The notes below the pieces were generated by a model, which was not told where the DNA came from, searched no databases, and saw only the letters and a program-made list of their open reading frames with translations. A DNA stretch of 64,000 nucleotides from NCBI GenBank assembly GCA_951406725.2, contig OX597814.1, positions 115,134,001 to 115,198,000 on the forward strand. Reading direction: 5' to 3'. Source of the DNA: Octopus vulgaris (lineage: Eukaryota). Every line of letters starts with the position of its first letter. Positions within the stretch are counted from its first letter, which is position 1. This document shows positions 311 to 61,205 of this stretch, one piece after another. Position numbers and translations under genes: made by a program.

Positions 311-778
311 AGCAACACTAATAGCAGCAGCATTAGGCTTATTAACTGATTACTTTTTTAAATAAGCATTTATTTGCTTATTTGTTTATTTGCAACATCA
401 GTGCCTGAACGGCTACTGAAATTCCATATATCGCTGGCAGTTCAGATTTGGATGCATGCTGCTACCAGACAATCTGCTACTGAAGAGACGGAGCATGTCG
501 AAATCACGTGCCCTGACAGTTCTGCTGCCAGTAGCAAACGATTCTCGACTGCCAGGAATATAAATATGTATACTTTTATGCACCACACGTCTCTTTGAGA
601 GGTTCTCACAATATAAATAATGAAGTATTCGCCGCTCTAAGAATACATCCAAGTTGGATATTGAGATTGTCTTTTGATATTAATACTGCTTCTGTCGCTA
701 TTATTTGACATACATACATATATCTGTTTGTATGTCCAATTGTAATAAAAACAATTTTATATTAATCTGGATTCTTTT

Positions 779-1201
779 TTTCTTTTCTATTTTACTTGTT
801 TCAGTCGTTTGACTGCGGCCATGCTGGAGCACCGCATTTAGTCGAGCAAATTGATCCGAGGACTTATTTTTTGGAAGCCTAGTACTTATTCTATCAGGCT
901 CTTTTGTCGAGCCGATAAGTTACGGGGACGTAAACACACCAGCATCGGTTGTCAAGCGATGTTGGGGGAAAACGCAAACACACAAACATATACATGTACA
1001 AACATACATATATATATATATATAAGTATACATATATACGACGGGCTTCTTTCAGTTTCCGTCTACCAAATCCACTCACAAGGCTTTGGTCAGCTCGAGG
1101 CTATAGTAGAATACACTTGCCCAAGTTGCCACGCAGTAGGAATGAACCCGGAACCATGTGGTTGGTAAGCAGGCTACTTACCACACAGCCACTCCTGCGC
1201 C
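779..1201 (-). mobile_element. tRNA-derived SINE family A (~400 bp with internal microsatellite)
   Basis: Reverse complement reads GGCGCAGGAGTGGCTGTGTGGTAAG (A box)...GGTTCCGGGTTCA (B box)...GCGGTGCTCCAGCATGGCCGCAGTCAAACGACTGAAACAAGTAAAA. About 15 copies or fragments in the window. Confidence 0.9.
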
Positions 1202-1240
1202 TATTTTCTTGTAGAGTATGATTTTATATTTAAGCAAAAT

Positions 1241-1340
1241 TATCATTGACAGTGCCTTCGAAGTTTCGGACAGCTAAGCAATCGTCAGACTGCTGAATAT
1301 AGCTTAACTGATAAGAACTTCGAAGTCACTATCAATGATA
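1241..1340. repeat. Palindrome of two head-to-head degenerate hammerhead motifs
   Basis: TATCATTGACAGTGCCTTCGAAGTTTC...GAACTTCGAAGTCACTATCAATGATA. Minus strand reads CAGT-CTGACGA-..-GAAA-CTTCGAAG-GC-ACTG. Confidence 0.7.
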
Positions 1341-1728
1341 TTCTTGATAGAATTATATACATATATATGTATGTGTGTGTGCATACATGTATAATGTTGG
1401 GTATGGCGATATATCAGGAATATGATGTACTTCGAGGAAGTAATTGAATACGGATAGCATAATCGTGTATTCTGAAATTAAAAGTGGTTTTGTCGCATAT
1501 AATTATATTGCAGTGTTTGTTATATCGCTTGGTCACTTGCAAACATGTGTTTACTTCCTAAGTAATGAAGCAGAAACGAAAATCTTGCTAAATTTGGAGT
1601 TTTCCAGCTTTGTAGACTGTTATAATTTAATGGGGGAAATTAATTAGTGTCTCTGGTTAATGACGAAAATATCAACACTCATTCATTAATGCGTGTGGAT
1701 GTATATATACATATATATATCTGTGTGC

Positions 1729-1770
<42 letters not shown>

Positions 1771-1804
1771 ATGCGTGTTATACGTACGCAACACACATGT
1801 ATAT

Positions 1805-2036
1805 ATTTTTCTCTACTACCCACAAGGGGCTAAACACAGAGGGGATAAACATGGACAGACAAACGGATTAAGTCGATTACATCGACCCCAGTGCGTAACT
1901 GGTACTTATTTAATCGACCCCGAAAGGATGAAAGTCAAAGTCAACCTCGGCGGAATTTGAACTCAGAGCGTGACGGCAGACGAAATACGGCTACGCATTT
2001 CGCCCGGCGTGCTAATGTTTCTGCCAGCTCGCCGCC
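1805..2036 (-). mobile_element. tRNA-derived SINE family B (~230 bp)
   Basis: Reverse complement GGCGGCGAGCTGGCAGAAAC...CTGAGTTCAAATTCCGCCGAGG...CTTTCATCCTTTCGGGGTCGAT..AAGTACCAG; repeated many times in the window. Confidence 0.9.
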
Positions 2037-2179
2037 AACACACATGTATATATGCATGCATACATACATAAATGGGTGGATACATACATACATAATGCCA
2101 TCCAGAAAAATGAGTGTCAACTCAAGGAATACAAGCATCAACTCAAGGAATACTGGTGGAACATTCCCATCAAAACATG

Positions 2180-2620
2180 TGTCAAGTGTAATCATAACAG
2201 GCTAGATATTGTTCTTTAAAACAGGCAAGAAAATGTATGTACTAGCATAGAGGTCACCTCTCCTGTTAATATGACCAATTAAAGAGAAAGAGGAATAACT
2301 ATGGACCACTGCTTCGAAACCTCCAGCTTCTATATCAGCATCACAAATTTACATTTATATCAAGGATAATTTGTGCACTTTTTTGTGAGTAAACGCCTAA
2401 CTGATAGTCTGGATAAGCTTGGATTTTCTGAAAAATAAACCAACCAGTTGACTTGCACATTACAAATAGAATTCATAGGTGGAACAGTAAAAATATGCAA
2501 GACTTTTCTTTAGGCTAAAATGTGACATTGTTTTCGTTATCGCCATTCCAGCGATAGAGCTATTTTTCATCTTTGTTAGAAACCAGCTCCTTTCTTAGAG
2601 GAATACTTAGAAACAGAAGA
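2180..2620 (+). mobile_element. Decayed 3' end of an RLE-endonuclease non-LTR retrotransposon (R4/Dong-like)
   Basis: Translates with frameshifts and stops to KCNHNRLDIV..NRQENVCTSIEVTSP..KEKEE.YGPLLRNLQLLY..GTVKICKTF, the HNRPD..E..K restriction-like endonuclease tail. Confidence 0.6.
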
Positions 2621-2667
2621 GAACATGCTTACACAGCCGTTTATGCATCATACATAATGTAACTGCA

Positions 2668-2955
2668 GAGGCACATGGTCTAGCAGTTAGAGCAGCGGAC
2701 TCGTGGTTGAGGGATCACGGGTTCGAATCTCAGAGCGGGCAATGTGTGTGTTTATGAACGAAACACCTAAGCTCCACGCAGCTCCGGCAGAAGGCAATGG
2801 CGAACCTATGCTGACTCTTTCGCCACTACTTTCTCTCACTCTTTTCCCGTGCATCTAGCAGCTCACCTGCGACGGACCGGCGTTCCGTCCAAGCGGGGAA
2901 CCTATACGCCAATGAAACCTGGAAACCGCCCCTTATGAGCCAGGCATGGCTCGCG
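2668..2955 (+). mobile_element. SINE head C with tail variant b
   Basis: GGCACATGGTCTAGCAGTTAGAGCAGCGGACTCG..GGTTCGAATC head. Tail CTGCGACGGACCGGCG..CCGTCCA..GGGGAACCTATACGC recurs at 63265-63362. Confidence 0.75.
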
Positions 2956-3241
2956 ATGTACTCATAACTATTATTAGAGACTTATAACTAACAATAGAGA
3001 CTCAGCAGGGACTCATTTTTCGCCTTCTAAAAAAGTACAGAACGCTACAGCTTCATACGAATAATGGAAAATATTCATACAAATATAACTAAATTAACTT
3101 AATGATACAACGTTGGCCATAGAGACTCAATAATTATAAATTCCCTCTCTATCTCTCTTACTCACACACACACACTCAGACACAGACGCGCGCGCACAGA
3201 TACACACACACACACTCAGACACAGACGCGCGCGCACAGAT

Positions 3242-3273
<32 letters not shown>

Positions 3274-3404
3274 TCATACATGACGGGTTTCCTCAGTTTT
3301 TACTCTCTATTTTCACTTAAGATGCTAATATCAGACACTTGCCCAAGTTACCAGCAATAAGTGAAGCGAACATCTTATCCACACAGTCTTCCTTGCGCCA
3401 ACAA

Positions 3405-3462
<58 letters not shown>

Positions 3463-4856
3463 AAAAAGTTTTGTGGAAGTATTTACATCTATATTACCGC
3501 GTAAAAGGTATATAACTGAACAACAAACAATTTTGATGCGTTAGCATATTACTCGGGTTAAGTTACAGCCAGCCAGCTTCAGTTGTTAATGATTTCTCTT
3601 GATACTATGCCATGAGTTTAAGTTGTATTCATTACATAAAAAATACAACACTAAATAATAAGCACCATTCAATACAAAGATCTATTGATTAGTTGTTGCT
3701 TGCAACGAGGACATCTGTAAATGGCGAGTATTCTGTAAGCTCCTACATTTAATCCTGCAATTAACAGGCATAATATTTCGTAAGAAAGAATGAAATCAGA
3801 CCCGGCGTACCACCGTCATAACCACTTGATCGCTAGATGTGTGGCCTCTTAACTGACAAAATTAGTAGGTTAATTTTCCGAAAATCACATTTGCATCTTA
3901 AACATGAAGAACGAATGTAATCTAAGACATTTTTCTTGGAAACAAGATAGAATGTCATGGCCTAAAAGTGTATGATCAGATATTCGTTCAATCAGGGCTG
4001 ACATGGAGTCAGATATACCAAAAGACAAATTAAACAGCAATTTGTGCCAATAGTAGAAAACCTGACTTGTTGCTTTTGTAGCAACTACTTAAAAGCTTGG
4101 GCTCGTGCCTTGTAAGTATTAATCATATAGAGAGTTTCATTAAATCATTGAAATCCATATCAAACCAAAAGAATTCGTAATGTAAAATTCTGTTATCAGT
4201 CAGAAATTTTAACTAGTTATAAGAGAGAAGTGGTTCAAAGGAACCAGACTGAATAGTAAAGCTATTTTTTTAATTGGTCAATTTGGAACTGACACTTTAG
4301 TGATTGTGTCAAAATTTGAACCGAATGCGGAGTCAAATTTAAAGAATCTTTATCAGACCGAGTTTTACTTGTCAAGAATTGGTAAGTTAGTGTACATTCA
4401 ATAAATATTTATTTTACTTGACAAGTTAGACAGATATCCAGTATTGAATGATTAATTTAATCATTTAAACTAAAGAAACGATTTCTTTTCGTTACCCCAA
4501 TGTCTTACAAAATAATATAATCCGAGAAAGATTCGTAAACAAAACTCAATCTGTTCTTTTTAATAATAAATCGAATTATCTCTACAGGCACTGCTTTTAA
4601 TTAAAGAGCATAGTATGGAGAAGAAAATAAAATTGATGTTTTCCTAGCCTTTTCACCAGCTAATCGATTTTTTTTATCATTTTCTGTTTTACGTGTGCAA
4701 ATTGAGTTCACTCGTATTTTTTACTATCCGCTCTTTGTGCTGCACTGCATTATAAGAATGGAGATTTTTCGTGCTTTCTACGACGTTCATTCTCTCCATT
4801 CACAAAGAACTGAAAAAGCTAAGAACAACTTACAAAGAATTTAATAAGATTTTAAG

Positions 4857-4909
<53 letters not shown>

Positions 4910-5241
4910 ACGTTAATATTTTATCATTTTGCTTTCTTGTATAATTAAGTTATAATACAAAATAATATTTCAATACATTTTGTTTAGTTTTATTATTTCT
5001 TCATTTCTTGTCTTAGTTTTAATACTTTGCAGATGGTGTGAGTTAACTAATTTCCCGAAGTATTAGCCGTTGTAGTAATGGTAAATGATACGGAGAGAAT
5101 ACATAGGCCGTCTATACGTTGTTTCACAATAAACCGATATACGCCTCTGTGTATAGTTTAATGTGTGATATATGGCAGGAACACCGATGTGGGTTACATT
5201 TGTGCTGGTATTTTCCTTTCTTGAAGTAAGGTCAATGGCAA

Positions 5242-5298
<57 letters not shown>

Positions 5299-5735
5299 TT
5301 CAGAATTCAAGTGAATGAGGTACCTAAATAATAAAGCACCAAGCTCGGGTCAAAGAAATAGCAATCGTGTACCAAACAAACTTCTCCCCGTTGTTTAATT
5401 GATATTACCTATTAATGTTTTTTTACTATTATTCACCTTACTCGGAACGTACGTTTAGCGTGGATCTGGAGTCTATTAATCGCAGTACAATAGGGGCAGT
5501 GTGCGCTTCTAAGTACAGCATTGAGACTCGTGGTATATTCAGTCAGGCGCTTGTGATCGTATATGCAACTGGAATATTAATCTGTCTGTACTTCGGTTAG
5601 TACGTATGCTTCTCTAATTTTGTTTGGTACACACCGCCATATGTGCACTTATACTAAGATGGCTTTACACTGTTACAACTTGACCAACACCAGAGAAATG
5701 AAAAAGAACGGCTTTTTTCGTCTATTTATAGTAAT

Positions 5736-6108
5736 GTGGGGGCAAAATTGCCCAGTGGTTAGGGCAGCGGACTCGGGGTCGTAGGATCACGGTTTCGATT
5801 CCCAGACTGGACGTTAAGAGAGTTTATTGAACGAAAACACCTAAAGCTCCATCAGGCTCTGGCAGTGGGTGATGGCGAACCCTGCTGTACTCTTGCACAA
5901 CAACTTTCTCTCATACTTTCTTCCTGTTTCTGTTGTACCTGTATTTCAAAGGTACAACAGCCTTTTCACACTGAATCTCCCTGAGAACTACATTAAGGGC
6001 CCACGTGTCTGTGGAGTGCTCGGTCACTTACACGTTAATTTCACGAGCAAGCTGTTCCATTGATCGGGTCAGCTGGAACCCTAGTCGTCACAACCGACGG
6101 AGTGCCAC
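5736..6108 (+). mobile_element. SINE head C with tail variant c
   Basis: tRNA-like head CCCAGTGGTTAGGGCAGCGGACTC..GGTTTCGATTCCC; tail ends GGAACCCT.GTCGTC..AACCGACGGAGTGCCA. Confidence 0.8.
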
Positions 6109-6297
6109 GATTTATAGTAATAAAGATAGTGAGGAAATCTAAAAGATTTTCACTGATATTTTATGGAGAGGAAGCCTGTTACTCCTGTTTAAGGACCACA
6201 TACTTGAAGTAATGTCATAAACTAAACATAAACTTATTGCTTAAATGTTTTTACTGCATACATTGAAGTGTCAAACTCCGTATGTATTATTCTAAGT

Positions 6298-7037
6298 CAG
6301 GGTTTCTCAAACTTTTAGGGCCACCGCACCCTCATACCCACATAATACCTTCAGCGCCCCACCCCTATTTTTATGTATAAATAAAAATTTATATTTTACT
6401 AATTTATATATAGTATGAATAATTTGATATTTAACATTATATAATTTATAGGGTGGCGAGCTGGCAGAAACGTTAGCATGCCGGGCGAAATGCTCAGTGG
6501 TATTTCGTCTGCCGTTACGTTCTGAGTTCAAATTCCGCCGAGGTCGACTTTGCCTTTCATCCTTTCGGGGTCGATTAAATAAGTACCAGTTACGCACTGG
6601 GGTCGATATAATCGACTGAATCCGTTTGTATGTCCTTGTTTGTCCCTTCTGTGTTTAGCCCCTTGTGGGTAGCAAAGAAATAGGTATTTCGTCTGCCGTT
6701 ACGTTCTGAGTTCAAATTCCGCCAAGATCGACAGTGCCTTTCATCTTTTCGGGGTCGATTAAATAAGTACCAGTTACGCACTGGGTCGATATAATCGACT
6801 TAATCCGTCTGTCTGTCCTTGTTTGTCCCCTCTATGCTTAGCCCACTGTGGACAAAACAGGAATAAATATTATATAATTTGTATACAATACTATAATATT
6901 ATAAATTCAAAAGCGTCCTCCAATCCACTGCCTTTCTCCTAATGCCTCCTTTTTCTCTACCACCTCCTTAGACGCCAGCACCCATCTGGATCCTCTCAAC
7001 GCCCACCGGGGGCAGGCGCCCACTTTGAGAATCTATG
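6298..7037. mobile_element. hAT (Charlie-like) MITE with nested SINE-B dimer
   Basis: TIRs CAGGGTTTCTCAAA / TTTGAGAATCTATG; perfect 8-bp TSD TTCTAAGT at 6290-6297 and 7038-7045. Confidence 0.85.
6451..6868 (+). mobile_element. Tandem SINE-B dimer (full copy 6451-6682 plus 5'-truncated copy 6683-6868)
   Basis: Two consecutive SINE-B bodies flanked by one TSD, ATTATATAATTT(A/G)TA (6436-6450, 6869-6883). Confidence 0.85.
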
Positions 7038-7589
7038 TTCTAAGTGTTTAGAAAAGCTATGTTGCAGGTGAAATTAATAAAATGTTGCATGAAATATACA
7101 GACACTAATCACATGCCAAGTTAACGATATGGTTGTCAACACATCGTAACCCTCTGTTAAAGTTAAATAACTAGTTCCATCTTTCGAGCACTAATTTCTT
7201 CTACGTACAAACATAACTAAAGAAAGGAAGCTACCAGGGAATATTTTGTAAACTGCTGATGCCAGTTTGATAAAATTTCAGCAATTGTTTTTTTTATTTT
7301 ATTTATTTATCTTGTATCGAAACTTTTGACTCCTCTCAGGGTGAAAAAATAAACAATAACGTTTCTCAAACTTGTTATAAATATGGAAGAAGTTAGTAAC
7401 AAAATTGTGTCGAATATGGAAGGTGTTATTCATATCTAGTCTTTTAATTTAAACAAATATATATATATAGTCTGAGAAGCTTTGCATTCGTCGACAAGAA
7501 ATATATATGTAGTCAATTACGTCTGTTTGCTGAAGCTTATATACAGCGAAGTGAAGAGGAATCTGATTTGAAGGAACCGACTACTAATA

Positions 7590-7624
<35 letters not shown>

Positions 7625-7626
<2 letters not shown>

Positions 7627-7890
7627 ATTATAAATAAGGGCAAAAGAAAAAAAATTCTATGCCAATATGGTGATTAACGATTTAAAGCCTATTTCTCAGC
7701 ATATTGGCATAGAATTTTTTTTCTTTTGCTCTTTCTTATAAATTGTTTATAATTTTCCCCTTTAAAGATATGCCCACTTGATGAAATTTTTGAAAAAAAT
7801 TTTATCCTATATTAGAAATATATATAAACAAAGGCTGTGTAAATTTTTGAATATTTATTTATAAATGTTCTAAAATCCACACAGCCTTGC
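7625..7890. repeat. Two adjacent long hairpins in a (TA)n-embedded element
   Basis: GCAAAAGAAAAAAAATTCTATGCCAATATG / CATATTGGCATAGAATTTTTTTCTTTTGC, then AAGGCTGTGTAAATTTTTGAATATTTAT / ATAAATGTTCTAAAATCCACACAGCCTT. Confidence 0.75.
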
Positions 7891-8097
7891 TTTTTTTTAT
7901 CTCATTACGAAAAAATATTTTTTTATATACACACGCTGATATATGTCCTACATTGGACCAACCCTTTTTCACATAATCACCAAACCTGGAACTTAACTAT
8001 GGTCTATCCATAGCACTTATTCAGCATTACCTGACACCTTTCGGTCTCACTGACACCATTATGTCTCATAACCTATATATGCATGAATGTATATGTA

Positions 8098-8152
<55 letters not shown>

Positions 8153-8162
8153 TGTATTAATT

Positions 8163-8369
8163 ATTTCTTTATTACCCACAAGGGGCTAAACACAGAGGGG
8201 ATAAACAAGAACAGATATCGACCCCAGTGCGTAACTGGTACTTAATTTATCGACCCCGAAAGGATGAAAGGCAAAGTCGACCTCGGCGGAATTTGAACTC
8301 ATAACGTAACGGCAGACGAAATACGGCTACGCATTTCGCCCAGCGTGCTAACGTTTCTGCCAGCTCGCC
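8163..8369 (-). mobile_element. SINE family B
   Basis: Same sequence as 1805-2036 with an internal deletion. Confidence 0.85.
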
Positions 8370-8617
8370 AATGTTTGTTTTATGTTCAGTTATAATAAAA
8401 ACCATTGATGATGGCTTAACTGGCCGAAACTTCCAAATCACCAAAATGGAGACGAGTTGATAAATGTTCAGAGATCCTTCTTTTATATGAAGTCATTGGC
8501 AGCCCCTTGTTAACCCAGAAATAAAGTATATTTATCCACCAATGCCATGTTTAGCACTCATTCTCACTCTTTGATATTAGCATATATACATATGTGTGTG
8601 TGAGAGAGAGAGGGGGT

Positions 8618-8662
<45 letters not shown>

Positions 8663-8720
8663 GATAGATAGATAGATAGCTATATATGTATGAAACTTAT
8701 ACAGACATTACGATTATCTT

Positions 8721-8760
<40 letters not shown>

Positions 8761-9404
8761 TCTCTCAGACGAAGTAAGTCTCAAAATGTGCTATTCCTTT
8801 TCTCCGCTACAATAAACAAAATTATCGAAAGCAACGAAAGAAGATACAAAAGACAAAGTATATCGAAAGAGATTTGAAAATATATTTACAACAATATCTA
8901 AAAATAGTTCATGTGACTGTCATTGTTAGTAAAATTTAGCTAAAAAAAAAAAAAAACTCTTGCAAGTCACACGTCAGAGCGACTTAGAACCATAATAATC
9001 CTTTGAAATCTGGTAGTGACCTGGAAGCTGTGACACAAAAAGCTAAAGAAGGGAAGAAACGATATTTCATATACATCCATACAAACACGCACACTCACTC
9101 ACAAACATACATACATACATATTCATACATGCATCGGTATATGTGTCTATATGTGTGTGAGCATGAATTCCTGTTTTAGTTTTCTCCACGAAAGAATTAG
9201 CTTTTGTATACAATTTTCATCGTTTTAAAGTAAAGTTAAATAGACAGTCCAACAAAACCAGTGTCACGTGTTTCATTTCATTATTGTATATTCGATATTT
9301 TGAGTGTATTCAGTAATGCGGTTGCTGATAATGTATTGTCTTACCTTGATCTATTCACATGCCAAAATGTATTCTTCAACATTTTCATTTTTCTTGCTTT
9401 GCAG

Positions 9405-9563
9405 TTAACTGAACTGGAGGAAGAATTCATTTACGCTGCAGAATTCGGAGACATTCCTACGGTGCAAAGAATCCTTCAGGATAATACAAACTTTAATATC
9501 GACTATAATGACATTCTGGGTCGCACACCGCTTCGTCTGGCAGTCGGCAATGAGCATCTGGAG
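9405..9563 (+). CDS. TRPC: Internal coding exon of a TRPC (canonical transient receptor potential) channel, N-terminal ankyrin repeats, TRPC3/6/7-like
   Basis: Polypyrimidine tract plus TTGCAG acceptor (AG 9403-9404) and GAG|GTAAGG donor at 9564. 53 codons LTELEEEFIYAAEFGDIPTVQRILQDNTNFNIDYNDILGRTPLRLAVGNEHLE match the TRPC3/6/7 N-terminus pattern LT.EEE.F..AAE.G.IP.V...L..AVGNEHLE. Confidence 0.92.
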
Positions 9564-17270: not shown

Positions 17271-17908
17271 ATCAAGCCATGGCACAACGAGTATCTCAAG
17301 TTATTTGGAATAATCTAATCAAGGTAATGTGAATTTGAAGTCTTACAGCTGTTTCTGGGATAACCCAAGTGGTTGGTCAGCATAACCGTACATTGGGTAT
17401 TCCGCCATCAAAGATAAAGTATGAATAGTTAAAAACCCAGGTAAATCTGGGCAACATATTAGCAGTGCTCTGAATGACATTTACAATAGGAATACATCAT
17501 TCAGAACATTGCCAAAATATTGCCTGGATTTCCCTGGGATTTTAGCTAAAAACCTGTACCTTCATGGAAGTAGCGACCAGCATGCATATCCTCAGGAAAA
17601 AGGTGAATTGGGAACTTTATTCTTCTGCCTATATTCTTCTAGCTACCATTACTCTTTATTCTTCAATTCTACTCCATTATTCTTCCATTTTATTCCTTAT
17701 AAACTGTGAATTTTATTCCTTGTAAACTGTAAATTTTCTCAGTCTATGATATTCGTACTTTGTCTCTGATGACAGAATACCCAGTGCATGGACAAGCTAA
17801 GCAACCACTCGGGTTATCCCAGAAACAGCTGTAAGACGTCAAATTTACCTTACCCTAATTAAATCATTCTAAATGTTTTGAGATACTCGTTCTGCCCTGG
17901 CCTTGATA
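17271..17908. repeat. Nested inverted repeat (outer arms ~155 bp, each with an HHR motif; inner hairpin 17427-17548)
   Basis: 17271-17426 is the approximate reverse complement of 17750-17908. Inner arms AAAACCCAGGTAAATCTGGGCAACAT / ATATTGCCTGGATTTCCCTGGGATTTT. Confidence 0.85.
17762..17837 (+). ncRNA. Type I hammerhead motif with palindromic stem III
   Basis: GTCT-CTGATGA-C-AGAATACCCAGTG...CACTCGGGTTATCCC-A-GAAA-CAGCTG-TA-AGAC. Base of stem II is partly mismatched. Confidence 0.6.
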
Positions 17909-35550: not shown

Positions 35551-35648
35551 CGTGACCGTGATCACCGTGACCGTGATCACCGTGACCGTGATCACCGTGA
35601 CCGTGATCACCGTGACCGTGATCACCGTGACCGTGATCACTGTGACCG
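35546..35648. repeat. 15-bp tandem array (ATCACCGTGACCGTG) x ~7 forming the 3' tail of a SINE
   Basis: Six perfect units plus one variant unit, between a (TA)n tract and SINE tail d. Confidence 0.95.
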
Positions 35649-40447: not shown

Positions 40448-43147
40448 ACAGGCATCACTTAGTGCAGGAATATGACACTGGATCTAAAACAGCGGCGTCG
40501 CAGGGTTTCGAATAGGGTTAGACTATTGATCATTTTCGTATCTTACATCAACAAACTAACTAAAACAGATTAGTTTAGAGTTAGTTAGTAAACCTAAGAT
40601 AACTGAACATTTTACCTTATCACTAAACTGACAACAAATACCTAATTTTTACATTGTAATTTATTATTGTTAGATGAACCTGTATTTGTGGTTTTTCATT
40701 GTTATTTCTCTTTCACTTTCAAGCCTTCAAAAGAGATATTTGAGCATGTAGTGTTATTTATTTAACACAAGAATTTGTCAATATTCTTTATTTATTTATT
40801 TTGTCTAAATAAGATTAGTAGTCAATGACATATCCGTATATTTTTCTTTCTAAAACAGTTTTATGCTAATTGATTGAGATATATACGCTTTTTACGTGGT
40901 TAAAGAGAGCCTTGGTCTTCGAATAATCATTTTGTCTTATTGCCCCCCGTCGTAAATAAAATAAATCAGTGAGAACAAGGAAATGGTTGGAAGAAGCTAA
41001 CTTCCATGTCATCTCGACATCTGGCCGTGTTGTTTTATAATATTAAATTACTTATATCTTTTGGTCTGTGTTTGAAATTGCCTGCCATTTATTATTCATT
41101 ACTTTGCAGATAAAACTGATAACTTATGTAAAATTTTATCACAAACTGAATCAAAGTCTATCGGTAGATGAAAATAACACAATAGATTCGGCGCAGGATT
41201 GGAAGAAATTTCATATCGCCGAGAAAGTTGAATATATTTCTAATGTTGTCACATTTGTTTCATCAAACGAGATGTATTACTCCTTCTCTCTCAAAAAGCT
41301 TCAAAGTCAACAAAAGCTTAAAGTATAATATTTCTGCGGGATGATATTTCTGTTATCGAATTTTAAGTTTTACGTCATGTGATTATTATTCCTTAGACAT
41401 TAACTGACAGCCATATTTAAAGGATTTTGCTTTATATCTTTTATTTATATATATATATTTCTTTTTTCCTTATTTCGCCTTCTCTTCCCCATCTCACTCT
41501 TTCACATCCTTTTATTCGTGAGTTGAAATCACTTTGTAGTTAAAAGGATGTTTTGTAACCAAACCGAGTATCTTGATAAACTACTTCTTCGACTATCTTG
41601 TAACATGATAGTTTCAATTATCAAACATTCAATAACAAGTTCGAATTGAACATTAATACCGAAGAAAGATTGCAAACAATTTTATTTTACATCTATATTT
41701 AATATTATTGTTATTATTATTGTTGCTAATGTTGTTCTTCTACTTTTTCTTCCCCCTCTTCTTAGCCTCCTCCTCTACTACTACTAATAATAATGATAAT
41801 AATAATACTTCCTTTTTCTTTTTGTCATGTTATTTCATTTACGCACAACAGATTAGACTATTGGAAAAAATTCCTAACATCGAGGTACAAGCAACCTTAG
41901 ATGCCAAGAACCTTTCCATTATTATTATTATTATTATCATAATTATTATTATTATCAGTATTATTATTATTATTATTTTTATTATTATTAAACCAATTTG
42001 TTGATTTCTCAGTGGAAAGGTAAAATACAATTTTCTTTCATTCTGAAAATTGAACTCATGTTTTGCGGGCTGATACATTATCTTTCAAATACGTTACATA
42101 ACAACATTTACCTTTCAGCTAAACATGAAAATCTTCTCAGAGAAGAAATGCCTAACCATAACTTCAAGACGAAATCCGACACTAAGCTATATTTCTTTCT
42201 TGAAGCTAATATGTTACTCTTCAAAGTTGCAAGTGCAACTGTTTACACATAACTTATTGAATGTTAACAATACCAAACAACGGCACCGACTCTGTTTGGC
42301 GGAACAAATCCAAAAATGGTAAAATCCTTTTAGGCAGCGAACTAGCCGAGTCGATAAAGTGATGAACAGAAAGCTTCACAGTAATTGTTCCGGCTCTCTA
42401 CTCTGAGTTCAAATCTCGATAGGGCCAACTTTGCATTTCATCCTTTTGAGATCGTTAAACACTAACAATCGGGTTGAATGCTTAGTGGTGTTTATTCCGG
42501 TCCACTGCATTCTGAGTTCAATTTCCACCATCGCCTACTTGGCTGGTAGACTTAAATTTGTCGCCTAATTTAATACTATCACCTTCCCCTGCTAACCAGG
42601 TACTTTTAGCGGGGTCCTCTATGATGGAAGCACTTGGGCTAAGTTTTCTGTTGTAGGATACTTTCCTTCCTCCTAGTAGTCTCTGAGAGCCTGTCGGGGG
42701 TCATGGGCATTGCCTTTAATTCTAGCTAAGAGCTAAAGCATGAACTTACAAGTTAGTTCCGGTTGATGCATAGTTGATTGAGCCAAGCCCCTGTACATGA
42801 CTACTGTTCATTTTATTGACTCAGAAGGATGAAACGCATTGACAACCTCGACCAAATTCAGAACATAGAGAAATGAAACAAGACACTGGAACGGGATTCT
42901 ACCTTCCTGAAAGAAGATGACCAAGAATAAGTACATGACAAGGATTACTAATGAATTGCAATAGGAGGATTGTACTGATAGTGCCGATATGCCTCACTAG
43001 GATGTTAGACAGAGTAAAATAGCTACCAAACCAGTAAAAGATTCTCTCTCGTCTACTACGATTATACAACTAAAAACAAGTATAATTGTTTTCCTAATGA
43101 AACCGTATCAACGAACTTTACATAAGTTATATAGGACCGTGTAAGTA

Positions 43148-44697
43148 TATATGTTGAATTACATAAATGTATAAATGATAGAACCGGGTGCAAATTGTAA
43201 ATTCAAGAACGTCACGTTTTAATCATGATAAAATTACGCAGTACATAAATGGATATTAAATCAGTAAACTAGAAGCATGATGGAGGTTGCCAGAATGCTA
43301 AATACAAGCTGAATCACATCCCATGATTAGACTTCCGCCAGTACATATTGATCAATGATAGCCAGTCAGTTTACATCGAAGAAGAAGGCGCCGAAAGGGA
43401 GATATTTCAAAATGGCCAACACAGAAACACTGCACCCATAAATAGTTCAGACTAAATGACAAGGCTGAGGCTGACAGTCAATATCTCTACTTTAAAATTC
43501 TGCACAATTACATGAAAGTAATGAATATGTAGACGAGATAAAATACTCCCCTAAAATTATTGTTATTGCATGTACAAAGAGCCACAAGCTGTGTATTATA
43601 TTATATTATATTATATTATATTATATTATAGAGTAAAGTTTATTTTCCAACGTAAAGTGGCAGTCCTGCTTAGGATGGTGTTGCTACTTTTTTTTAGCGC
43701 CAGGAAAACATCTTTTCGAGCTGGCTATCGATGCACATTTACGTCCTTATACCTCGAACAAGGGAGCTAATGTCTCCACTCAGCCTTAAACGGCACATGT
43801 GGACCAATGGTTTCTGGGTTATTTCTCTTCATTGGCACAGGATAACTGTTGGCAGCACTAGGCGTAGTTCGAGGCATATACTTTTAAAGTGACACACAGT
43901 CACTGATCTCGTAAGGAGAAAAAACAATTAGTTTTAAATCTCTGAACGAGAAATAAGTAGTAACAGTACTACAGAGTAAAGTTTATTTGACAAAGGGGCA
44001 GTTCCGAATAGGACCGTGTTACAACTTTTTTTACCCCCGGGAAAACATCTTTTCCAGCTGGCTATTATATTATAGTATATTACATTATACTATATCATAT
44101 CAGACCATATATCACCATATATGTATGTGTGCATGTATGTGTGTGTGTGTGTGTGTGAGTATGCATGCTTATTCATACATACACACGCATACATACATAC
44201 ATAATATATTATAATTTGATATATAACATAATACACAGTTTGTGGCTCTTTGTATATGCAATAACAATAATTATAGGGGAGTATTTTATCTCGTCTACAC
44301 ATTCATTGCTTTCATGTTGTTGTTCTTTTGTCAGACATAACTGTGCAGAATTTTAAAGCAGAAATATTGACTGTCAGCCTCAGCCTTGTCATTTAGTCTG
44401 AACTATTTGTGGGTGCAGTGTTTCTGTGTTGGCCATTTTGAAATGTCTCTCAGCGCCGCCTTCTTCGATGTAAACTGACTGGCTATCATTGATCAATATG
44501 TACTGGCGGAAGTCTAATCATTGGGATGTGATTCAGCTTGTATTTAGCATTCTGGCAACCTCCATCTTGCTTCTAGTTCACTGATTTAATATCCATTTAT
44601 GTACTGCGTAATTTTATCATGATTAAAACGTGACGTTCTTGTATTTGCAATTTGCACCCGGTCCTATCCTTTATACATATTTGAAATTCAAGATATA
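43148..44697. repeat. Long inverted repeat (arms 43148-43606 and 44221-44697), possible fold-back element or long-TIR MITE
   Basis: Arms roughly 90% identical by eye, e.g. GATTAGACTTCCGCCAGTACATATTGATCAATGATAGCCAGTCAGTTTACATCGAAGAAG versus its reverse complement at 44460-44519. Weaker similarity extends to ~42905 and ~44778. Confidence 0.93.
43630..44065 (-). mobile_element. Retrozyme / Penelope pLTR-like unit: 343-bp period, ~95-bp terminal direct repeats, degenerate HHR
   Basis: Direct repeats 43630-43728 and 43973-44065. Minus strand 43798-43839 reads TGTG-CCAATGA-A-GAG-AAATAA-CCC-A-GAAA-CCATTGG-TC-CACA. Inserted in (ATATT)n. Confidence 0.6.
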
Positions 44698-45436
44698 GTT
44701 CACAGAGTTTATGTAAGAACCAAGTTCAGTATTGTCGTAGCAGTTGTACTTATTCTTGGTATATTCGTTCTAGGATGACATTACATTCTGGTACTCAACT
44801 TGATGATTATCCACTTCACATATTTGACAATGGTACTTTCTGAAAAAAGCTTATTCCTTTCTGCTTGCTGTTATGTCACCTGCGAAGTCTTTAAGAAGGC
44901 CTTTGAGGCTTCTATTGTCATTGGACAGGATGTATCCGGATATGCTTCAGTACAGGCTTTATGAATCTGAAGATTTTTTTTTTACAATATCAGTTATGCT
45001 GTAATATATATATATATACATATATATGTTAACTTATATTGTTCTTATATTTAGGCAGGTACAAGTGAATCTCCACCCCAAAATGTCGAGGATGACACAG
45101 TTTGTATAATTACCAATTTGCAAGCTGCCTGCTGCTCCATCTCTGGCTGGATGTCTGCCTGTCTGTCTGTATCTCTATCTCGCTCTCTCTCTCTCTTGCT
45201 CTCTCACTTTCTCTCTCCCTTTCACTGTCTCCTCCTTTCATTTTCTTCCTCTGTTCTCTCTCTATATCTGTCTATCTCTCCCCTTTATTCTGACTATTTT
45301 TCTCTTTCCTTCTTTCGCCCCCACTCTACCTAGCCGTCTGTTATTCTTCATTTTTTCCCTAATTGGAATCCCCTCTCGCTTTCCCTTTCTCAAAAATTCG
45401 TGTAATTTATCTCATTTCTCCTTGATTCTTTCTCTA

Positions 45437-45483
<47 letters not shown>

Positions 45484-45594
45484 TACTGCTTCTTACTCTA
45501 GTCGCCTCCTTTCCCTCTTCATATCCCATTGTCTTTTCCTAAGCCTCAAGACACCCCCATCTTTATTTTATCTCTCACACACTCTCTCCCTCCC

Positions 45595-45640
<46 letters not shown>

Positions 45641-45900
45641 TAAATCATACAGCGACATCACTACGCAGTTGGACAAAAGGTCATCTGGCTTTGCTCTGTT
45701 ACTGTCCAATACAGTGAATTTTCGAATAATGCGTTTCACTGTGAGGTAAATGTACACAATCGAGGTAACGAACCTAAACATTTTTGGAATTCAAAAATAA
45801 CTCGTTAACCTCCAGTGCTAAGCTAGATTCCTAATAATGGATGTGTATGTTCTATTAATATAATATACTTACCTTGGTACAATTAGTCATATGTAGATGG

Positions 45901-45954
<54 letters not shown>

Positions 45955-45959
45955 TTATC

Positions 45960-46620
45960 ATTTGAGTTTTATTTAGATTCTTCTTGAGAGAGTTCAAGCC
46001 GGTCACTAACGAAGTGGCAGGGCTTTTTGAGTAAAGAGAGTTCCTAGTGTTTGTAAATATGTGGTTCAGTTGGTGCGTTGGCCGAACTGTCGATGCATAC
46101 AACCAAGTGCGTGCATCTATTCACATAAGGATCTCAGATGAAGGGTTTTGGGAATGTCTTACAAATCTTTACTTTGCCGTTCAGCAGATGTTGTCTGAGT
46201 GATACAATGGGGATTCAAAGGCTGTTTGGACTGACCATCACTTCATCTCACATAAATCCTAATGTAGAAGTTGCCAGTGGTTTTGATGTTTATGTGGTGT
46301 ATCTCATCGTGTGCCCAGTCTAATAACCCAAATATCGGTACTAGCACTGGTAATGCAAAAGCATTGCGAGACCTAGTTTTGTTGAATGCAGACAGCTTTG
46401 AGTTCTATATTTTCCAGAGCCTACAGAAGTACATTTCTATTATTCTGGCTTTAGTCACAGCACCAACGTATACAACATTTTCTCGATTCCGAGGTACTTG
46501 TAGCTTTCAGCATTAGATATAGAGGAGATAGACAAGTCGTTGACGTTCATGTTCTCTGTCTGGCCAACAACTATTCCTCGGTTGATTATCGTGTATGAGC
46601 ATTTATCTTGTCCACACTCT
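45960..46620 (-). mobile_element. Decayed reverse-transcriptase C-terminal region of an RLE-type (R4/Dong-like) LINE
   Basis: Minus-strand translation ESYKYLGI..KI*NSKLSAFNK..NAFALPVLVPIFGLLDW. Confidence 0.7.
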
Positions 46621-47414
46621 ATTCATATATCTCGTGAGAATGTGGTATAGTTCTAATTATCTCTTGATGTTGAAAGAATTGTAATACTCAACGACCTCTT
46701 CCATCCCTTTTTCTAACCAATTTGATTATCACGTTATAAGCAATGTTTGTTTCCTCCGAAATGGAGTATTGGAATTTTCTCCCTAATCTCGATGAGACGA
46801 ACTAAACTGGATTCATTTATTGAAATAATATATTGATCAATTATCAGATCATCTGTATTTACTATACAAGCCGTGTATAAGTTAAAGACTAGCAAACTGC
46901 ATTTTACTGCCATCACTCGTCTGACCCTACTACATTTTATTATTATACATACATATTTGTATGTATATATATATATAGTCAACAGAGCGAAATGCTGGAC
47001 TGAGATGAAAGCTTTTAATCAGCAAAGAATGTCATGTATTCTGGGATATATAGCATTATATTCTAAAGCTTTCTCTAAGAAGATTTCGATATAAAAAAAC
47101 TGGTATTTTGTGTCCATCCCTTAACGAAACCCCATCTATATTCCTAGGAGTTGTTTTTTGACATTTTGTTTCATTCTTTTCAGAAAAATCTTAGCAGCAA
47201 ATATATATATATATATATAAAGAGACAGAGAGATTCCACCACCACTGCTTGATAACTGGCGTTGGTGTGTTTACGTCCCCGTAACTTAGCATTTCAGCAA
47301 AAGGAAACGACAGAATAAAGTACAAGACCTAAAAAAATATAGGTACTGGGGACGATTCATTCGACTAAAATTCTTCAAAGGCCGCAGCCTAATGACTGAC
47401 ACAAAAGATAAGAT

Positions 47415-53398: not shown

Positions 53399-55069
53399 CA
53401 CTTGCGTCAGAAATTAATTAGCACTTCTCAAATTTCTACATTTTCTTACATTTTCTTAATTTAATTAACTTATTATCAGAAACGAACCCGTTTTTAATCA
53501 AAAATTTATTAAAACATATCCCAGCATACCACATAATAGTCAATATCTTGTTGCTCCTCATTTGGCAGCAATGACAGCTGCTACGCAGGCCGGCATGCTG
53601 TCTATGAGCGCCTGCAGGTACTGAGCAGGGATAACCCTCCATGCAGCAAGAAGTGCCCCAAACAGCTCGTGTCGGTTCCTGTATTGCTGCACATTCAAAT
53701 CCCTACACAATCGACTCCAGAGGTTCTCAATAGGGTTCAGGTCAGGTGACTGGCCAGGCCAGGCCAGGCCAGTCCATGACCGTCACCCTATGGTCCTTGA
53801 AGAAACCGGTTGTGAGCTTGGCTGTGTGGGGAGGCGCGTTGTCCTGCTGGAGCACGTACTCCTCGCCACCAAAGAGGTATCCCGCAGAGGGTAGGGCAGC
53901 ATTCCGTACTATCTCAACGTACTTTGCTGCGTTGATGTTGCCTTCGACGGCATAGAGCCGCCCAACACCACTGTAGCTGAACGCTCCCCACACCATCAGA
54001 CCACATCGCACCATCGCACATGGACAGGCTTGTCACTGACGAGACTGAATCGCGACTCGTCAGTGAACATCACTGTCCGCCACTGCTGCACGGTCCATGT
54101 CTTGTGGGCACGGGCCCAGAGCAGCCGCCTCTTCCAGTTTTGGGCTGTAAGGAGCGGCTTACGGGCGGCCCTACAGGATTTTAGACCAGCTTCCAGTAAT
54201 CTGGTCTTGACGGTGGTTGTAGACAACTGCTTCCCTGTCATCTTTTGCATCTCCTCCGCCAGTTGCCGGCTCGTTGCCCTTCGGTTGTTCAGCGACTTTC
54301 AGATCAGCATCCGGTCCTCCCGCTGGGTCGTCAGCCTCTTCTGTCCCCTACCCTTTTTGTCAGCTGCTGATCCGGTTTCTTCGTATTTCTTAAATAAGCA
54401 CTGAATTGTGCGCCTGGCTACACCAAGTTTTCTGGCTATTGCAGCCTCCGACAGCTTCCCACGCCACGAGAGAGCCTCGTACCATCTCTCCAAGGTCATG
54501 CGAGGTCTTGGGCCCATCTAGGAATGAACGATAAAGACCAGTTATTTTCATTAAAACTATTCATTTGAATAATGTTATGCTATAACAAAACTACTATGAG
54601 TTATTATTCATTAAACAAAAAAGAAAGAAAGCAGAATTTCTCACTTTATTTGATGTATAACAGAAAGTTTTGTGAACCGGAAGTAACGTCACGAAGCAGA
54701 GTGTAGGAGAATTTGTGAGGAAAAAAAATCTTGCAAATACACAAATCAATTAACCTACAAGCTGTTCAAAACGTCTTACGCGATGAGAAAACTTAGTACG
54801 GTGCGATTTTGGTCCTTGCGAGGCGCTACCTATATCTATTAAACAAAGGAAGATTTGTCTGCATCCGCACTCCAAGTTGTTGTTGCACTGCTATGTCAAC
54901 ATCATTAGGCTGTAGACTCTCAAACCGCTCTGCAAACAAAGTTACGTCATCGTTCTGCGCAACAGTGAATTCACAACAAAGCAATAGTTCGAGATATGGC
55001 CACTAGGTGACAGCACATACCTTGAGTGAAGAGCAAATCAAGGGTGCTAATTAATTTCTGACGGTAGTG
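53399..55069 (-). mobile_element. Complete Tc1 (DD34E) DNA transposon, 1671 bp
   Basis: 26-bp TIRs CACT(TG/AC)CGTCAGAAATTAATTAGCAC (53399-53424, 55044-55069); TA TSDs at 53397-53398 and 55070-55071. Confidence 0.96.
53540..54517 (-). pseudogene. Tc1 transposase pseudogene
   Basis: Paired-like HTH, ARKPLL, FTDESRF, LMVWG, QQDNAPPH and SPDLNPIENLW motifs with 34 residues between D and E. Stop at 54299-54301, deletion/frameshift near 54010, 10-bp (CCTGG)2 expansion near 53755, late stop near 53560. Confidence 0.95.
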
Positions 55070-55124: not shown

Positions 55125-55533
55125 TTACTCTCTTTACTCTTTTACTTGTTTTAGTCATTTGACTGCGGCCATGCTGGAGCACCGCCTTTAGTCGAGCAAA
55201 TCGACCCCAAGACTTATTCTTTGTAAGAATAGTACTTATTCTATCGATCTCTTTTGCCGAACCGCTAAGTTACGGAGACGTAAACACAACAGCATCGGTT
55301 GTCAAGCGATGTTGGGGGACAAACACAGGCACACAAACATATACTCACACATACATATATATATACATATATACGACGGGCTTCTTTCAGTTTCCGTCTA
55401 CCAAATTCACTCACAAGGCTTTGGTCGGCCCGATGCTATAGTAGAAGACAATTACCCAAGGTGCCACGCAGTGGGATTGAACCCGGAACTATGTGTTTCG
55501 TAAGCAAGCTACTTACCACACAGCCACTCCTAC
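55125..55533 (-). mobile_element. SINE family A
   Basis: Full-length match to the other family A copies. Confidence 0.9.
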
Positions 55534-56149
55534 GTCAACAGAAAAAATGAAATTAACTACAGAAAAGTGAAATTTAAAATATTTTCAATAACAAAAATTA
55601 TGCAAACCCGGGAACAAGCTTCTAAAAAGTGATATGCCTCGTAAATTCGATTGCAAATGGGATAATCGCCCATTATGCACTTACAAGGGACACTCGTAAT
55701 GTATTAGATTACAAAACACAACTAGACTGGAAAAGTACAGAATGATCAAATGGTCAAAAAGTTCCCTTTAGAACACAGAATTCCATGTTAGTGTTTTCTA
55801 TGCGATCCCTAGTCATGTGAGTAAAGATTGATAAACGAAAACTGTATGGAATCCCGTAATGTGGATTATGCAAATACTTTAATGTCGTACTGTGTCACAT
55901 GTCGTACTGTGTCACACTGATAACACCTGAGAATTACTTTAAGGATACACGTGTCTTTGGAATACTCAGCCACATGTTAATACTATGAACCGGTAATTTT
56001 GTTGATTGAACATCTTAGTGATCAACAACAACGAACGGAGAACCATTTATATTTTCTCTGTGGATAAAGAAATCAAAGAGGCCTCATACAATTGGAGGGG
56101 ACATTATAAAACCATCAGCAGTTAAAACGGTCCGTATTATATGGCGAGA

Positions 56150-59235: not shown

Positions 59236-59670
59236 TAGGAGTGGCTATGTTGTAAGTAGCTGGGCGTAGGAGTGGCTGTGTGGTAAGTAGTTTGCTTACG
59301 AACCACATGGTTCCAGGTTCAGTCCCACTGTGTGGCACCTTGGGTAGGAGTCTTCTACTATAGCCTCGGGCCGACCAAAGCCTTGTCAGTGGATTTGGTA
59401 GACGGAAACTGAAAGAAGCCCGTCGTATATATGTATACATATATGTATGTGTGTGTATATGTTTGTGTGTCTGTATTTGTCCCCCAACATCGCTTGACAA
59501 TCGATGCTGGTGTGTTTACGTCCCCGTAACTTAACGGTTCAGCAAAAGAGACCGATAGAATAAGTACTAGGCTTACAAAGAATAAGTCTTGGGGTCGATT
59601 TGCTCGACTAAAGGCGGTCCCCCAGCAAGGCCGCAGTCAAATGACTGAAACAAGTAAAAGAGTAAAAGAG
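59236..59670 (+). mobile_element. SINE family A with duplicated 5' segment
   Basis: AGGAGTGGCTATGTTGTAAGTAGCT precedes a full copy starting at ~59263. Confidence 0.88.
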
Positions 59671-61205
59671 TATTTATTCTACTTAAAGCATTCAGTCATC
59701 CTTCAGTTCAATATTAAATTGCCTTTTATATATAACCCCATCTAAAAACAAGAACTAAATCAACACTAATGAAGCAGGTCTGTGGCTAATGGTTTTCTAC
59801 CTATGACCATCACATCTTTCAGTAAGGTAAAACAGGAACTGAGTTCCATTTTTAGTAAATGGTTACTGCGTAGTCTCTGTCTTGTAGGCTCCGATGAATG
59901 TCCTTTGGTTTTTAAAGAAGGTAAGGTATTCTTCGAGGAAGATTTAACTGTAGTTTAGAACCACTCACATATTGATCGTCAATGGGTCTGTAAAGATATC
60001 AATAGTCGGTAGTAACAGAGGAACAGAGGTGTCTGGATGGATATGTAGTTGATTAGGTAAACAAATAGGAACCTTAGATCTGGAGCACATCTGTAGAACG
60101 CCATAAAAACTAAACAATAAGATATGAATTACGACTTTCATTCATGTTTTTATATATACTTTATTTATTTGAAACTAGACTGCTTTGGACTCACCAGGCG
60201 TCGTCAAACTACTTATCGGCACAAATTATATATACATACAGCTATATATACACGAACGCACTCCCTCAAATGTGTTTGTGTGTCTATGGAAGTATGGTGA
60301 GTGAGAGAGACGCATAGGTATATAAATACACATATATGTGTGTGTATAGGTATATATGTGTGTATAGGTATATATGTGTGTATAGGTATATATGAGTATA
60401 TATGTGTGTATAAGTATATATGAGTATATATGAGTATATATGTGTGTATAGATATATATGAGTATGTGTGTGTGTAAATATAATTATATAGAGAGAGATA
60501 AATACTTAGTACGTACAAGTACGTACTTAAATGCGAAAGTGTGTGTGAGTGATGGTGGTGGTAGTTGTGGGAAGCGTTTGTTGTTTGCGTGCGCGTATGC
60601 GTGTTAATATTCATTTAAAATGATGACAGATATAAAACCAATTTAATGATGAGTGAATAAAAAAAATTTTAACATCCAAAGCAATTTTTTTCATGACTAT
60701 TCTGTTTACCTCCTGCGTGAGCTGAGAGGTATTTATCACGTTTACATTTTTGCTTTTTGTTGATTGATCTATGCTAACATGCAAGTATTTGTGCATATAA
60801 ACATATATACATGTGCGTTTGTTTGTATTTATGTATGTATATATACGTATATACACATGTGTATGCATTTATGTATGTGTATATATATTATATATATATA
60901 TTATATATATATGTATATATATGTATATATATATTATATATATATGTATATATATGTATATATATATATTATATATATATATGTATATATATGTATATAT
61001 ATGTTATATATATATATATATGTATATATATGTATATATATATTATATATATATAAATACATACTCATATGTGCGTCTATACATATATGTATATATAAAC
61101 ACACACATATATATACGCAGGTATGTATACATGTATATGTGCGTGTGGTGTGCATGTATGAAAGTATTGTACACATATATGCATATATATATATATATAT
61201 ACAAT

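Follow-up and report, generated by a model that had tools for sequence, protein, structure and literature searches.

The arms of palindromes on primate Y chromosomes have been reported to diverge less than their spacers through gene conversion, and doubled sequencing depth revealed the presence of both arms (PMC3723533). In the human palindrome P6, arms differ from those of chimpanzee by 1.44% and spacers by 2.00%, with conversion biased towards the ancestral state (PMC3723533). Non-repetitive inverted duplicates are reportedly common in Drosophila (PMC3176832). Octopus has been described as having one of the strongest hyper-editing signals, tied to double-stranded RNA (dsRNA), and many near-perfect dsRNA loci (PMC5625713); the targets of editing are reported to be mainly young repeats (PMC9989829). 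Here we describe an inverted repeat in Octopus vulgaris that we read, with a probability of roughly 0.55, as an old single-locus palindrome whose arms have been homogenised by conversion, which was split by the insertion of a repeat and whose transcript is predicted to form a duplex of ~450 bp. No literature on this locus was found by title or start of abstract, a search from which subscription journals fell outside the scope.

The locus lies in a 64,000-nucleotide stretch of DNA (the window), to which all coordinates refer. On the basis of protein identity and splice sites, we assigned 9405-9563 on the forward strand to a coding exon for the ankyrin region of a TRPC3/7-like channel gene. Its product is 100% identical to TRPC proteins of Octopus bimaculoides and O. 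sinensis, and its borders are canonical, with an acceptor ending in TTTGCAG and a donor beginning with GTAAGG. No following TRPC exon was found in 9564-64000, either by tblastn with four relatives or by exact six-residue matches. The inverted repeat begins ~33.6 kb beyond the exon donor, and a location inside a TRPC3/7-like intron of more than 54 kb is supported, given that the gene is collinear. On the same proviso, a place inside the TRPC pre-mRNA, which an earlier note made from this DNA had set as a condition, is supported. Counting the repeat under study, 29 inverted pairs with 150 or more columns and 75% or more identity lie in the intron part at 9567-64000. The intron also holds another inverted repeat with a short spacer, 17271-17427 paired with 17750-17907 (82% over 158 columns, 323 nt apart). 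Elsewhere in the window we observed a small self-complementary stem-loop at 7619-7751 (82% over 136 columns, not (TA)n), a tandem array with a self-complementary 15-bp unit at 35583-35640 and, on the reverse strand at 53558-54517, a Tc1/mariner transposase broken into several frames, three of whose four fragments match HTH_23, HTH_Tnp_Tc3_2 and DDE_3.

Self-BLAST of the window returned a sole strong inverted match, between 43148-43629 and 44201-44697 (504 columns including 29 gaps, 88.9% identity, reported E value 0.0), and no further copies of the arms within the 64 kb. This confirms that the inverted repeat exists with arms that the earlier note had judged by eye to be about 90% alike. The left arm occupies 43148-43593 and is delimited by self-BLAST, an ungapped count, its stop codons and a depth of one to two times single copy in four sequencing runs; the right arm, its reverse complement, occupies 44201-44697, as defined by self-BLAST, alignments and right-arm letters on separate contigs. 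Across 43148-43595, 421 of 444 ungapped columns match (94.8%), and 23 substitutions set the arms 5.2% apart. Most gap columns belong to one 21-nt block, which the right arm carries in addition to the left sequence together with a 1-nt base, while 4 nt of the left arm are missing from it. The longest perfect runs measure 62, 62, 45 and 44 bp. The outer 60 bp hold 8 mismatches, the middle 276 bp hold 7 and the inner 112 bp hold 8, which makes the middle, and not the inner end, the best-matched part. This unevenness is modest (P = 0.006 if the outer 60 bp are preset, P = 0.19 for any 60-bp window and chi-square P = 0.44 for thirds).

All six frames of both arms are full of stops, with no long open frame, which rules out coding potential and agrees with the earlier description of the arms as non-coding. 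No Rfam family reached its gathering score on the arms, where an arm gave four weak matches; across 41000-47000 there were 16 matches at E of 1 or less, all below gathering score and 14 of them on the central microsatellite hairpin. Exact 20-22-nt arm motifs had zero matches in metagenome and viral contigs, and the arm had none among plasmids; these collections are not of eukaryotic genomes and carry little weight. As noted before, the arm termini have no target-site duplication (TSD) beyond TA-rich 4-6-mers, with a 2-bp TA duplication still conceivable. An 8-bp direct repeat at ~42998 and 44771 was considered as a TSD and rejected, because the bases that it encloses fail to mirror each other. 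We also rejected an outer extension of the arms. Similarity had been said to decay outwards while staying traceable to ~42905 and ~44778, but the outer 268-nt pair scores 49, a chance-level value: 24 of 300 shuffles reached it, as did 28 of 300 pairs drawn at random from the window. Beyond the arms the single standout is a 16-nt exact match between 42920 and 44745.

The sequence between the arms proved to be composite. Its length, previously given as 614 bp, stands at ~615-625 nt when the (TATTA)n ends are left out and falls to 571 nt when they are counted as arm. It does separate the arms, as had been recognized; overlooked were a high-copy repeat, its 105-bp direct repeat and a loopless microsatellite palindrome that runs into the right arm. 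On the forward strand, a (TATTA)7.4 microsatellite at 43594-43630 forms both the inner end of the left arm and the left border of the inserted repeat, and a decayed (TATTA)7.6 tract at 44063-44100 forms the right border. From self-BLAST, depth and joints, we delimited at 43624-44065 a high-copy dispersed repeat of unassigned class, made of a ~340-bp unit plus a 105-bp terminal direct repeat whose copies (43624-43728 and 43967-44065) are 78% identical. Further copies of this repeat are arranged head to tail, starting at a fixed end (44064), with joints that go back 318-321 from 44060-44064; inverted joints from 44064 also occur, and the repeat is abundant in all four runs. Its layout recalls the tandem-core MITEs of molluscs or Penelope-derived elements. 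A hammerhead ribozyme in the tandem unit is a hallmark of retrozymes and Penelope-like elements. The tandem ~340-bp unit is present here, and no hammerhead matched the one copy searched up to an E value of 10; Rfam gave two weak matches for the spacer.

At 44107-44224 a (TATG/TG)n tract meets a (CA/CATA)n tract in a palindrome that has no loop and is centred on 44163-44166. Its 59-nt arms are 71% complementary, lie 0 nt apart and continue into the right arm. The ungapped score is 31/40, which 15 loci in the window, most of them (TA)n tracts, also reach. This palindrome is likely to be the original centre of symmetry, for which the sequence provides modest support. With 43630-44062 taken out, the whole structure reads as a near-loopless fold-back, and the palindrome would predate insertion of the repeat.

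To count the arms, we compared four of 24 public runs (X1, X9, X12 and X14), using contigs only, over 42000-44110, a region that takes in the left flank, the left arm and the greater part of the spacer, with a threshold of 80% identity. Arm depth was 6-14 in X1 (flank 7.9), 8-13 in X9 (flank 7-7.7), 13-29 in X12 (flank 7.5) and 21-38 in X14 (~17 on long contigs), so that in every run the arms stand at roughly 1-2x the depth of a single copy. By contrast, the spacer repeat reached 933-4082 in X1, or 118-515 times the flank, and summed depth from 43633 onwards was 500-9500 across runs. Summed contig depth gives no exact copy number, but the contrast between arm and spacer is hundredfold. Depth noise is visible in the cores, for which arms like those of the window predict 1.39x, while X1 gave 1.13x and X9 gave 1.07x. 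The locus thus carries the arms as two copies, and what is mobile is the spacer between them, the opposite arrangement to that of a MITE. Of the two origins proposed in the earlier note, a local inverted duplication agrees with there being only two copies by contig depth; a fold-back transposon, understood as a family, does not fit this depth or the lack of a TSD. The known high-copy MITE that the same note had envisaged as a counter-case is also at odds with arms at one to two copies in four of four runs.

Both arms can be followed in the runs. In X1 and X9, which come from two studies and are close to the window, one contig passes out of the left flank into the arm, and another aligns from 43147 onwards with right-arm letters; the left contig of X1 differs from the window at 2 of 1234 positions. 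Right-arm letters on a separate contig aligned from the arm boundary onwards recur in X12 and X14, and this outer boundary, at 43147-43149, is sharp and common to all four runs. None of the contigs listed spans both arms or the centre, and adjacency and orientation rest on the window assembly.

X12 and X14 come from diverged organisms. In X12, the contig that covers the flank plus outer arm departs from the window by 90 letters and 33 gaps in 1130 bases. Two parallel X12 contigs (depths 7.5 and 7.0) are followed by core contigs at 15.7-16.6 (2.1-2.2x), which is the pattern of two near-identical copies merging. Among the differences listed, the X12 arm at 43255-43507 departs from the left arm at a minimum of 7 of 253 positions and from the right arm at a deduced 6 of 253. 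Compared with 90 of 1130 in the mostly-flank contig (Fisher P = 0.002 for left and 0.0009 for right, on the same listed differences), the arm has changed ~2.9-fold more slowly, at about one third of the flank's rate; such arm counts in the runs are lower bounds. In X14, 7 of 30 bins lack cover at 80% identity or more, all in the left flank, which weakly suggests that X14 is more distant than X12, although the holes may reflect turnover or filtering. The X14 arm has at least 8/198 differences among those listed, and its core contigs, at 26.7, 38.2 and 34.9, correspond to 1.6-2.3x. Changed places total 125 in X14 and 114 in X1, a near-equality that limits how many arm differences could be hidden. 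X12 shares the outer boundary and has two copies, and X14 shows the boundary with roughly double depth, their adjacency and orientation being taken over from the window. Both diverged organisms therefore also appear to carry about two copies of an arm that changes less than its flank.

Four sites seem to have been copied between arms, each with a lineage-specific letter in both. Site 43205 is A in both window arms, with no G in X1 or X9, and is G in both parallel X12 contigs. Site 43182 is A on the left and G on the right in the window, X1 and X12, and G in both X9 contigs. At 43290 a 2.2x X12 contig has T, and at 43585 a 2.1x X14 contig has G, where both window arms have C. Two of these four are A/G transitions that could recur. 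Other letters are less telling: those of X14 at 43293, 43327, 43329 and 43339 sit in a 1.58x contig, close to the 1.56x expected if they were private to one arm, and so do not show conversion, and the two X14 contigs at 43205 may merely overlap. The relatives share the right-arm letter of the window at seven listed sites, and X12 has the left-arm letters at 43385-43386, which suggests that both window arms hold private changes. Neutral copies older than the X12 split should differ by at least the 8% of the flank. The window arms differ by 5.2% and those of X12 merge at double depth, which argues for conversion. The earlier proposal that the inner arms were homogenised by conversion is therefore in part sustained, by the four copied-looking sites and by there being two copies only, but its location is not, as similarity peaks in the middle and not at the inner end.

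We propose that a fold-back or template switch at a (TG)n/(CA)n tract could have produced a near-loopless palindrome. Hairpin or cruciform pairing would then let one arm overwrite the other, so that the arms stay alike and change between species slows. Later, a ~435-bp mobile repeat may have landed in the left (TATTA)n tract, opening the loop to ~570 nt, and in the window lineage both arms would since have gained their private changes. The duplex would be spliced out with the intron and need no function of its own. The ~2.9-fold slowing exceeds the 1.4-fold of Y palindrome P6, which means that conversion alone may not suffice and makes selection a serious rival.

As RNA, the region 43200-44697 is predicted to fold into one long stem with a minimum free energy of -863 kcal/mol. 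From its structure, the repeat is a plausible ADAR substrate, and editing is likely if the intron is transcribed. As such a substrate it is not special: it is one of the 29 inverted pairs in this part of the intron, and a SINE pair at 55126 and 59265 is about as stable (-711.5 kcal/mol, versus -721.2 kcal/mol for the palindrome). That SINE-like inverted pair (55126-55534 and 59265-59672) consists of a common ~410-bp repeat at 92.9% identity, 3.7 kb apart.

Purifying selection on the arms, whether as a duplex that regulates the splicing or expression of TRPC (through ADAR binding, for example) or as a duplicated cis-regulatory element, with conversion merely its upkeep, is a tentative alternative that we take seriously. 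It would account for the X12 arm changing at a third of the flank rate among the differences listed, and for the few listed differences in the X14 arm next to a left flank with uncovered bins, although the missing cover may again be turnover or filtering. Each arm has one match to each of the YY1, ETS and CRE consensus motifs, but the window contains 10, 8 and 15 occurrences of them, which adds little, and CpG observed/expected is 0.65 in the arm, below the 0.87 of the window. The window arms have nevertheless gathered 23 substitutions and three indels, on both sides, and a 435-bp repeat in the loop, and an RNA duplex requires pairing and not a fixed sequence. Conserved human dsRNAs are reported to be enriched in neuronal genes, which is in favour of selection, but also to be short (median 65 bp) and seldom edited, so that a selected 450-bp duplex would come as a surprise (PMC11838218). 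In its most specific form, in which selection would have kept a ~450-bp non-repetitive duplex in an ion-channel intron, with conversion repairing it over millions of years, as a docking site for ADAR or a regulator of TRPC splicing, the idea is doubtful.

It is unlikely that the arms are instead long terminal inverted repeats (TIRs) of an old non-autonomous DNA transposon (Mutator-, Foldback- or Polinton-like) that has lost its inside and whose other copies have fallen below 80% identity. O. vulgaris is reported to be rich in TIR families, including Mutator and unclassified ones (PMC13282606). The outer boundary of the arms is sharp and shared by the four runs. Arms of this length fit long TIRs. 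However, none of the four runs has extra copies at 80% identity or more, the termini lack a TSD beyond TA-rich 4-6-mers, the outermost 60 bp are the least alike and the arms have no open frame. Moreover, the inner ends meet in the loopless microsatellite palindrome, which leaves no room for internal sequence.

Production of small RNAs from the locus, as an endo-siRNA source or as a giant microRNA hairpin cut near its base, is very improbable. The duplex is long, stable and conserved, and invertebrate giant microRNA hairpins with more than 1 kb between microRNA and star strand are reported to be missed by short-hairpin models (PMC12553114). We found no Rfam match at gathering score, from models that expect short hairpins, and it is the middle of the arms, not the base, that is most alike; the giant-hairpin reading thus fits poorly. 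Endo-siRNA production from the arms, which the earlier note had raised, is unlikely: a survey reports no evidence that molluscs have a dedicated siRNA pathway (PMC12479628). Finally, an artefact of assembly, from either a chimeric fold-back read or the head-to-head joining of two haplotypes, is highly improbable, even though no listed contig covers the whole structure, because the arms are 5% apart with indels, whereas the X1 left contig is nearly identical to the window, and both arm versions occur with different outer flanks in two studies and one diverged organism.

If the palindrome is indeed maintained by conversion, the locus offers a small, tractable case of a palindrome that apparently preserves itself by gene conversion outside mammalian sex chromosomes. 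It also serves as a warning that a sequence kept up by conversion can look like a conserved non-coding element. In one lineage the loop may have been opened by a dated insertion, and the locus could for this reason serve as a natural experiment on the control of conversion by loop size. Should selection on the duplex prove true instead, the animals in which RNA editing is heaviest would possess a conserved dsRNA element of unusual length, one that exceeds by far the conserved dsRNAs catalogued in humans and is possibly one of a class in octopus neural genes.

The locus resembles several known systems in part. Like Drosophila hpRNAs and giant microRNA hairpins (PMC12553114), it is a long single-locus fold-back with a possible extended stem; unlike the latter, its pattern of conservation is reversed and it has no known microRNA match among the Rfam models, and the siRNA pathway is reportedly absent in molluscs. 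With MITE and Foldback elements, among them mollusc tandem-repeat MITEs such as DTC84 (PMC3879986), it shares a pair of inverted arms that enclose a tandem core and a microsatellite. Here, though, the arms lack a TSD and are no multi-copy family at 80% identity or more, and high copy number is confined to the central ~435 bp, which alone may resemble the core-plus-microsatellite layout.

The predicted near-perfect duplex in a pre-mRNA, in a group with heavy hyper-editing, recalls the intronic inverted repeats edited by ADAR (PMC11838218, PMC5625713, PMC9989829). Unlike most edited duplexes, which come from young repeats, the octopus palindrome is single-locus and apparently old, and at ~450 bp it exceeds the medians reported for human edited non-repetitive dsRNA (144 bp) and conserved dsRNA (65 bp; PMC11838218).

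As in the palindromes of mammalian sex chromosomes, of which P6 is an example (PMC3723533), two inverted arms lie at one locus and, judged by contig depth and boundary, may be shared by related species. The octopus arms, at 0.45 kb, are ~200 times shorter than P6 (~100 kb), intronic and gene-free; they are 94.8% alike in the window lineage, whereas those of P6 are more than 99.9% alike, and their apparent slowing is ~2.9-fold as opposed to 1.4-fold. Like the Y palindromes, they seem to carry lineage-specific letters in both arms and, among the differences listed, change less than the neighbouring DNA.
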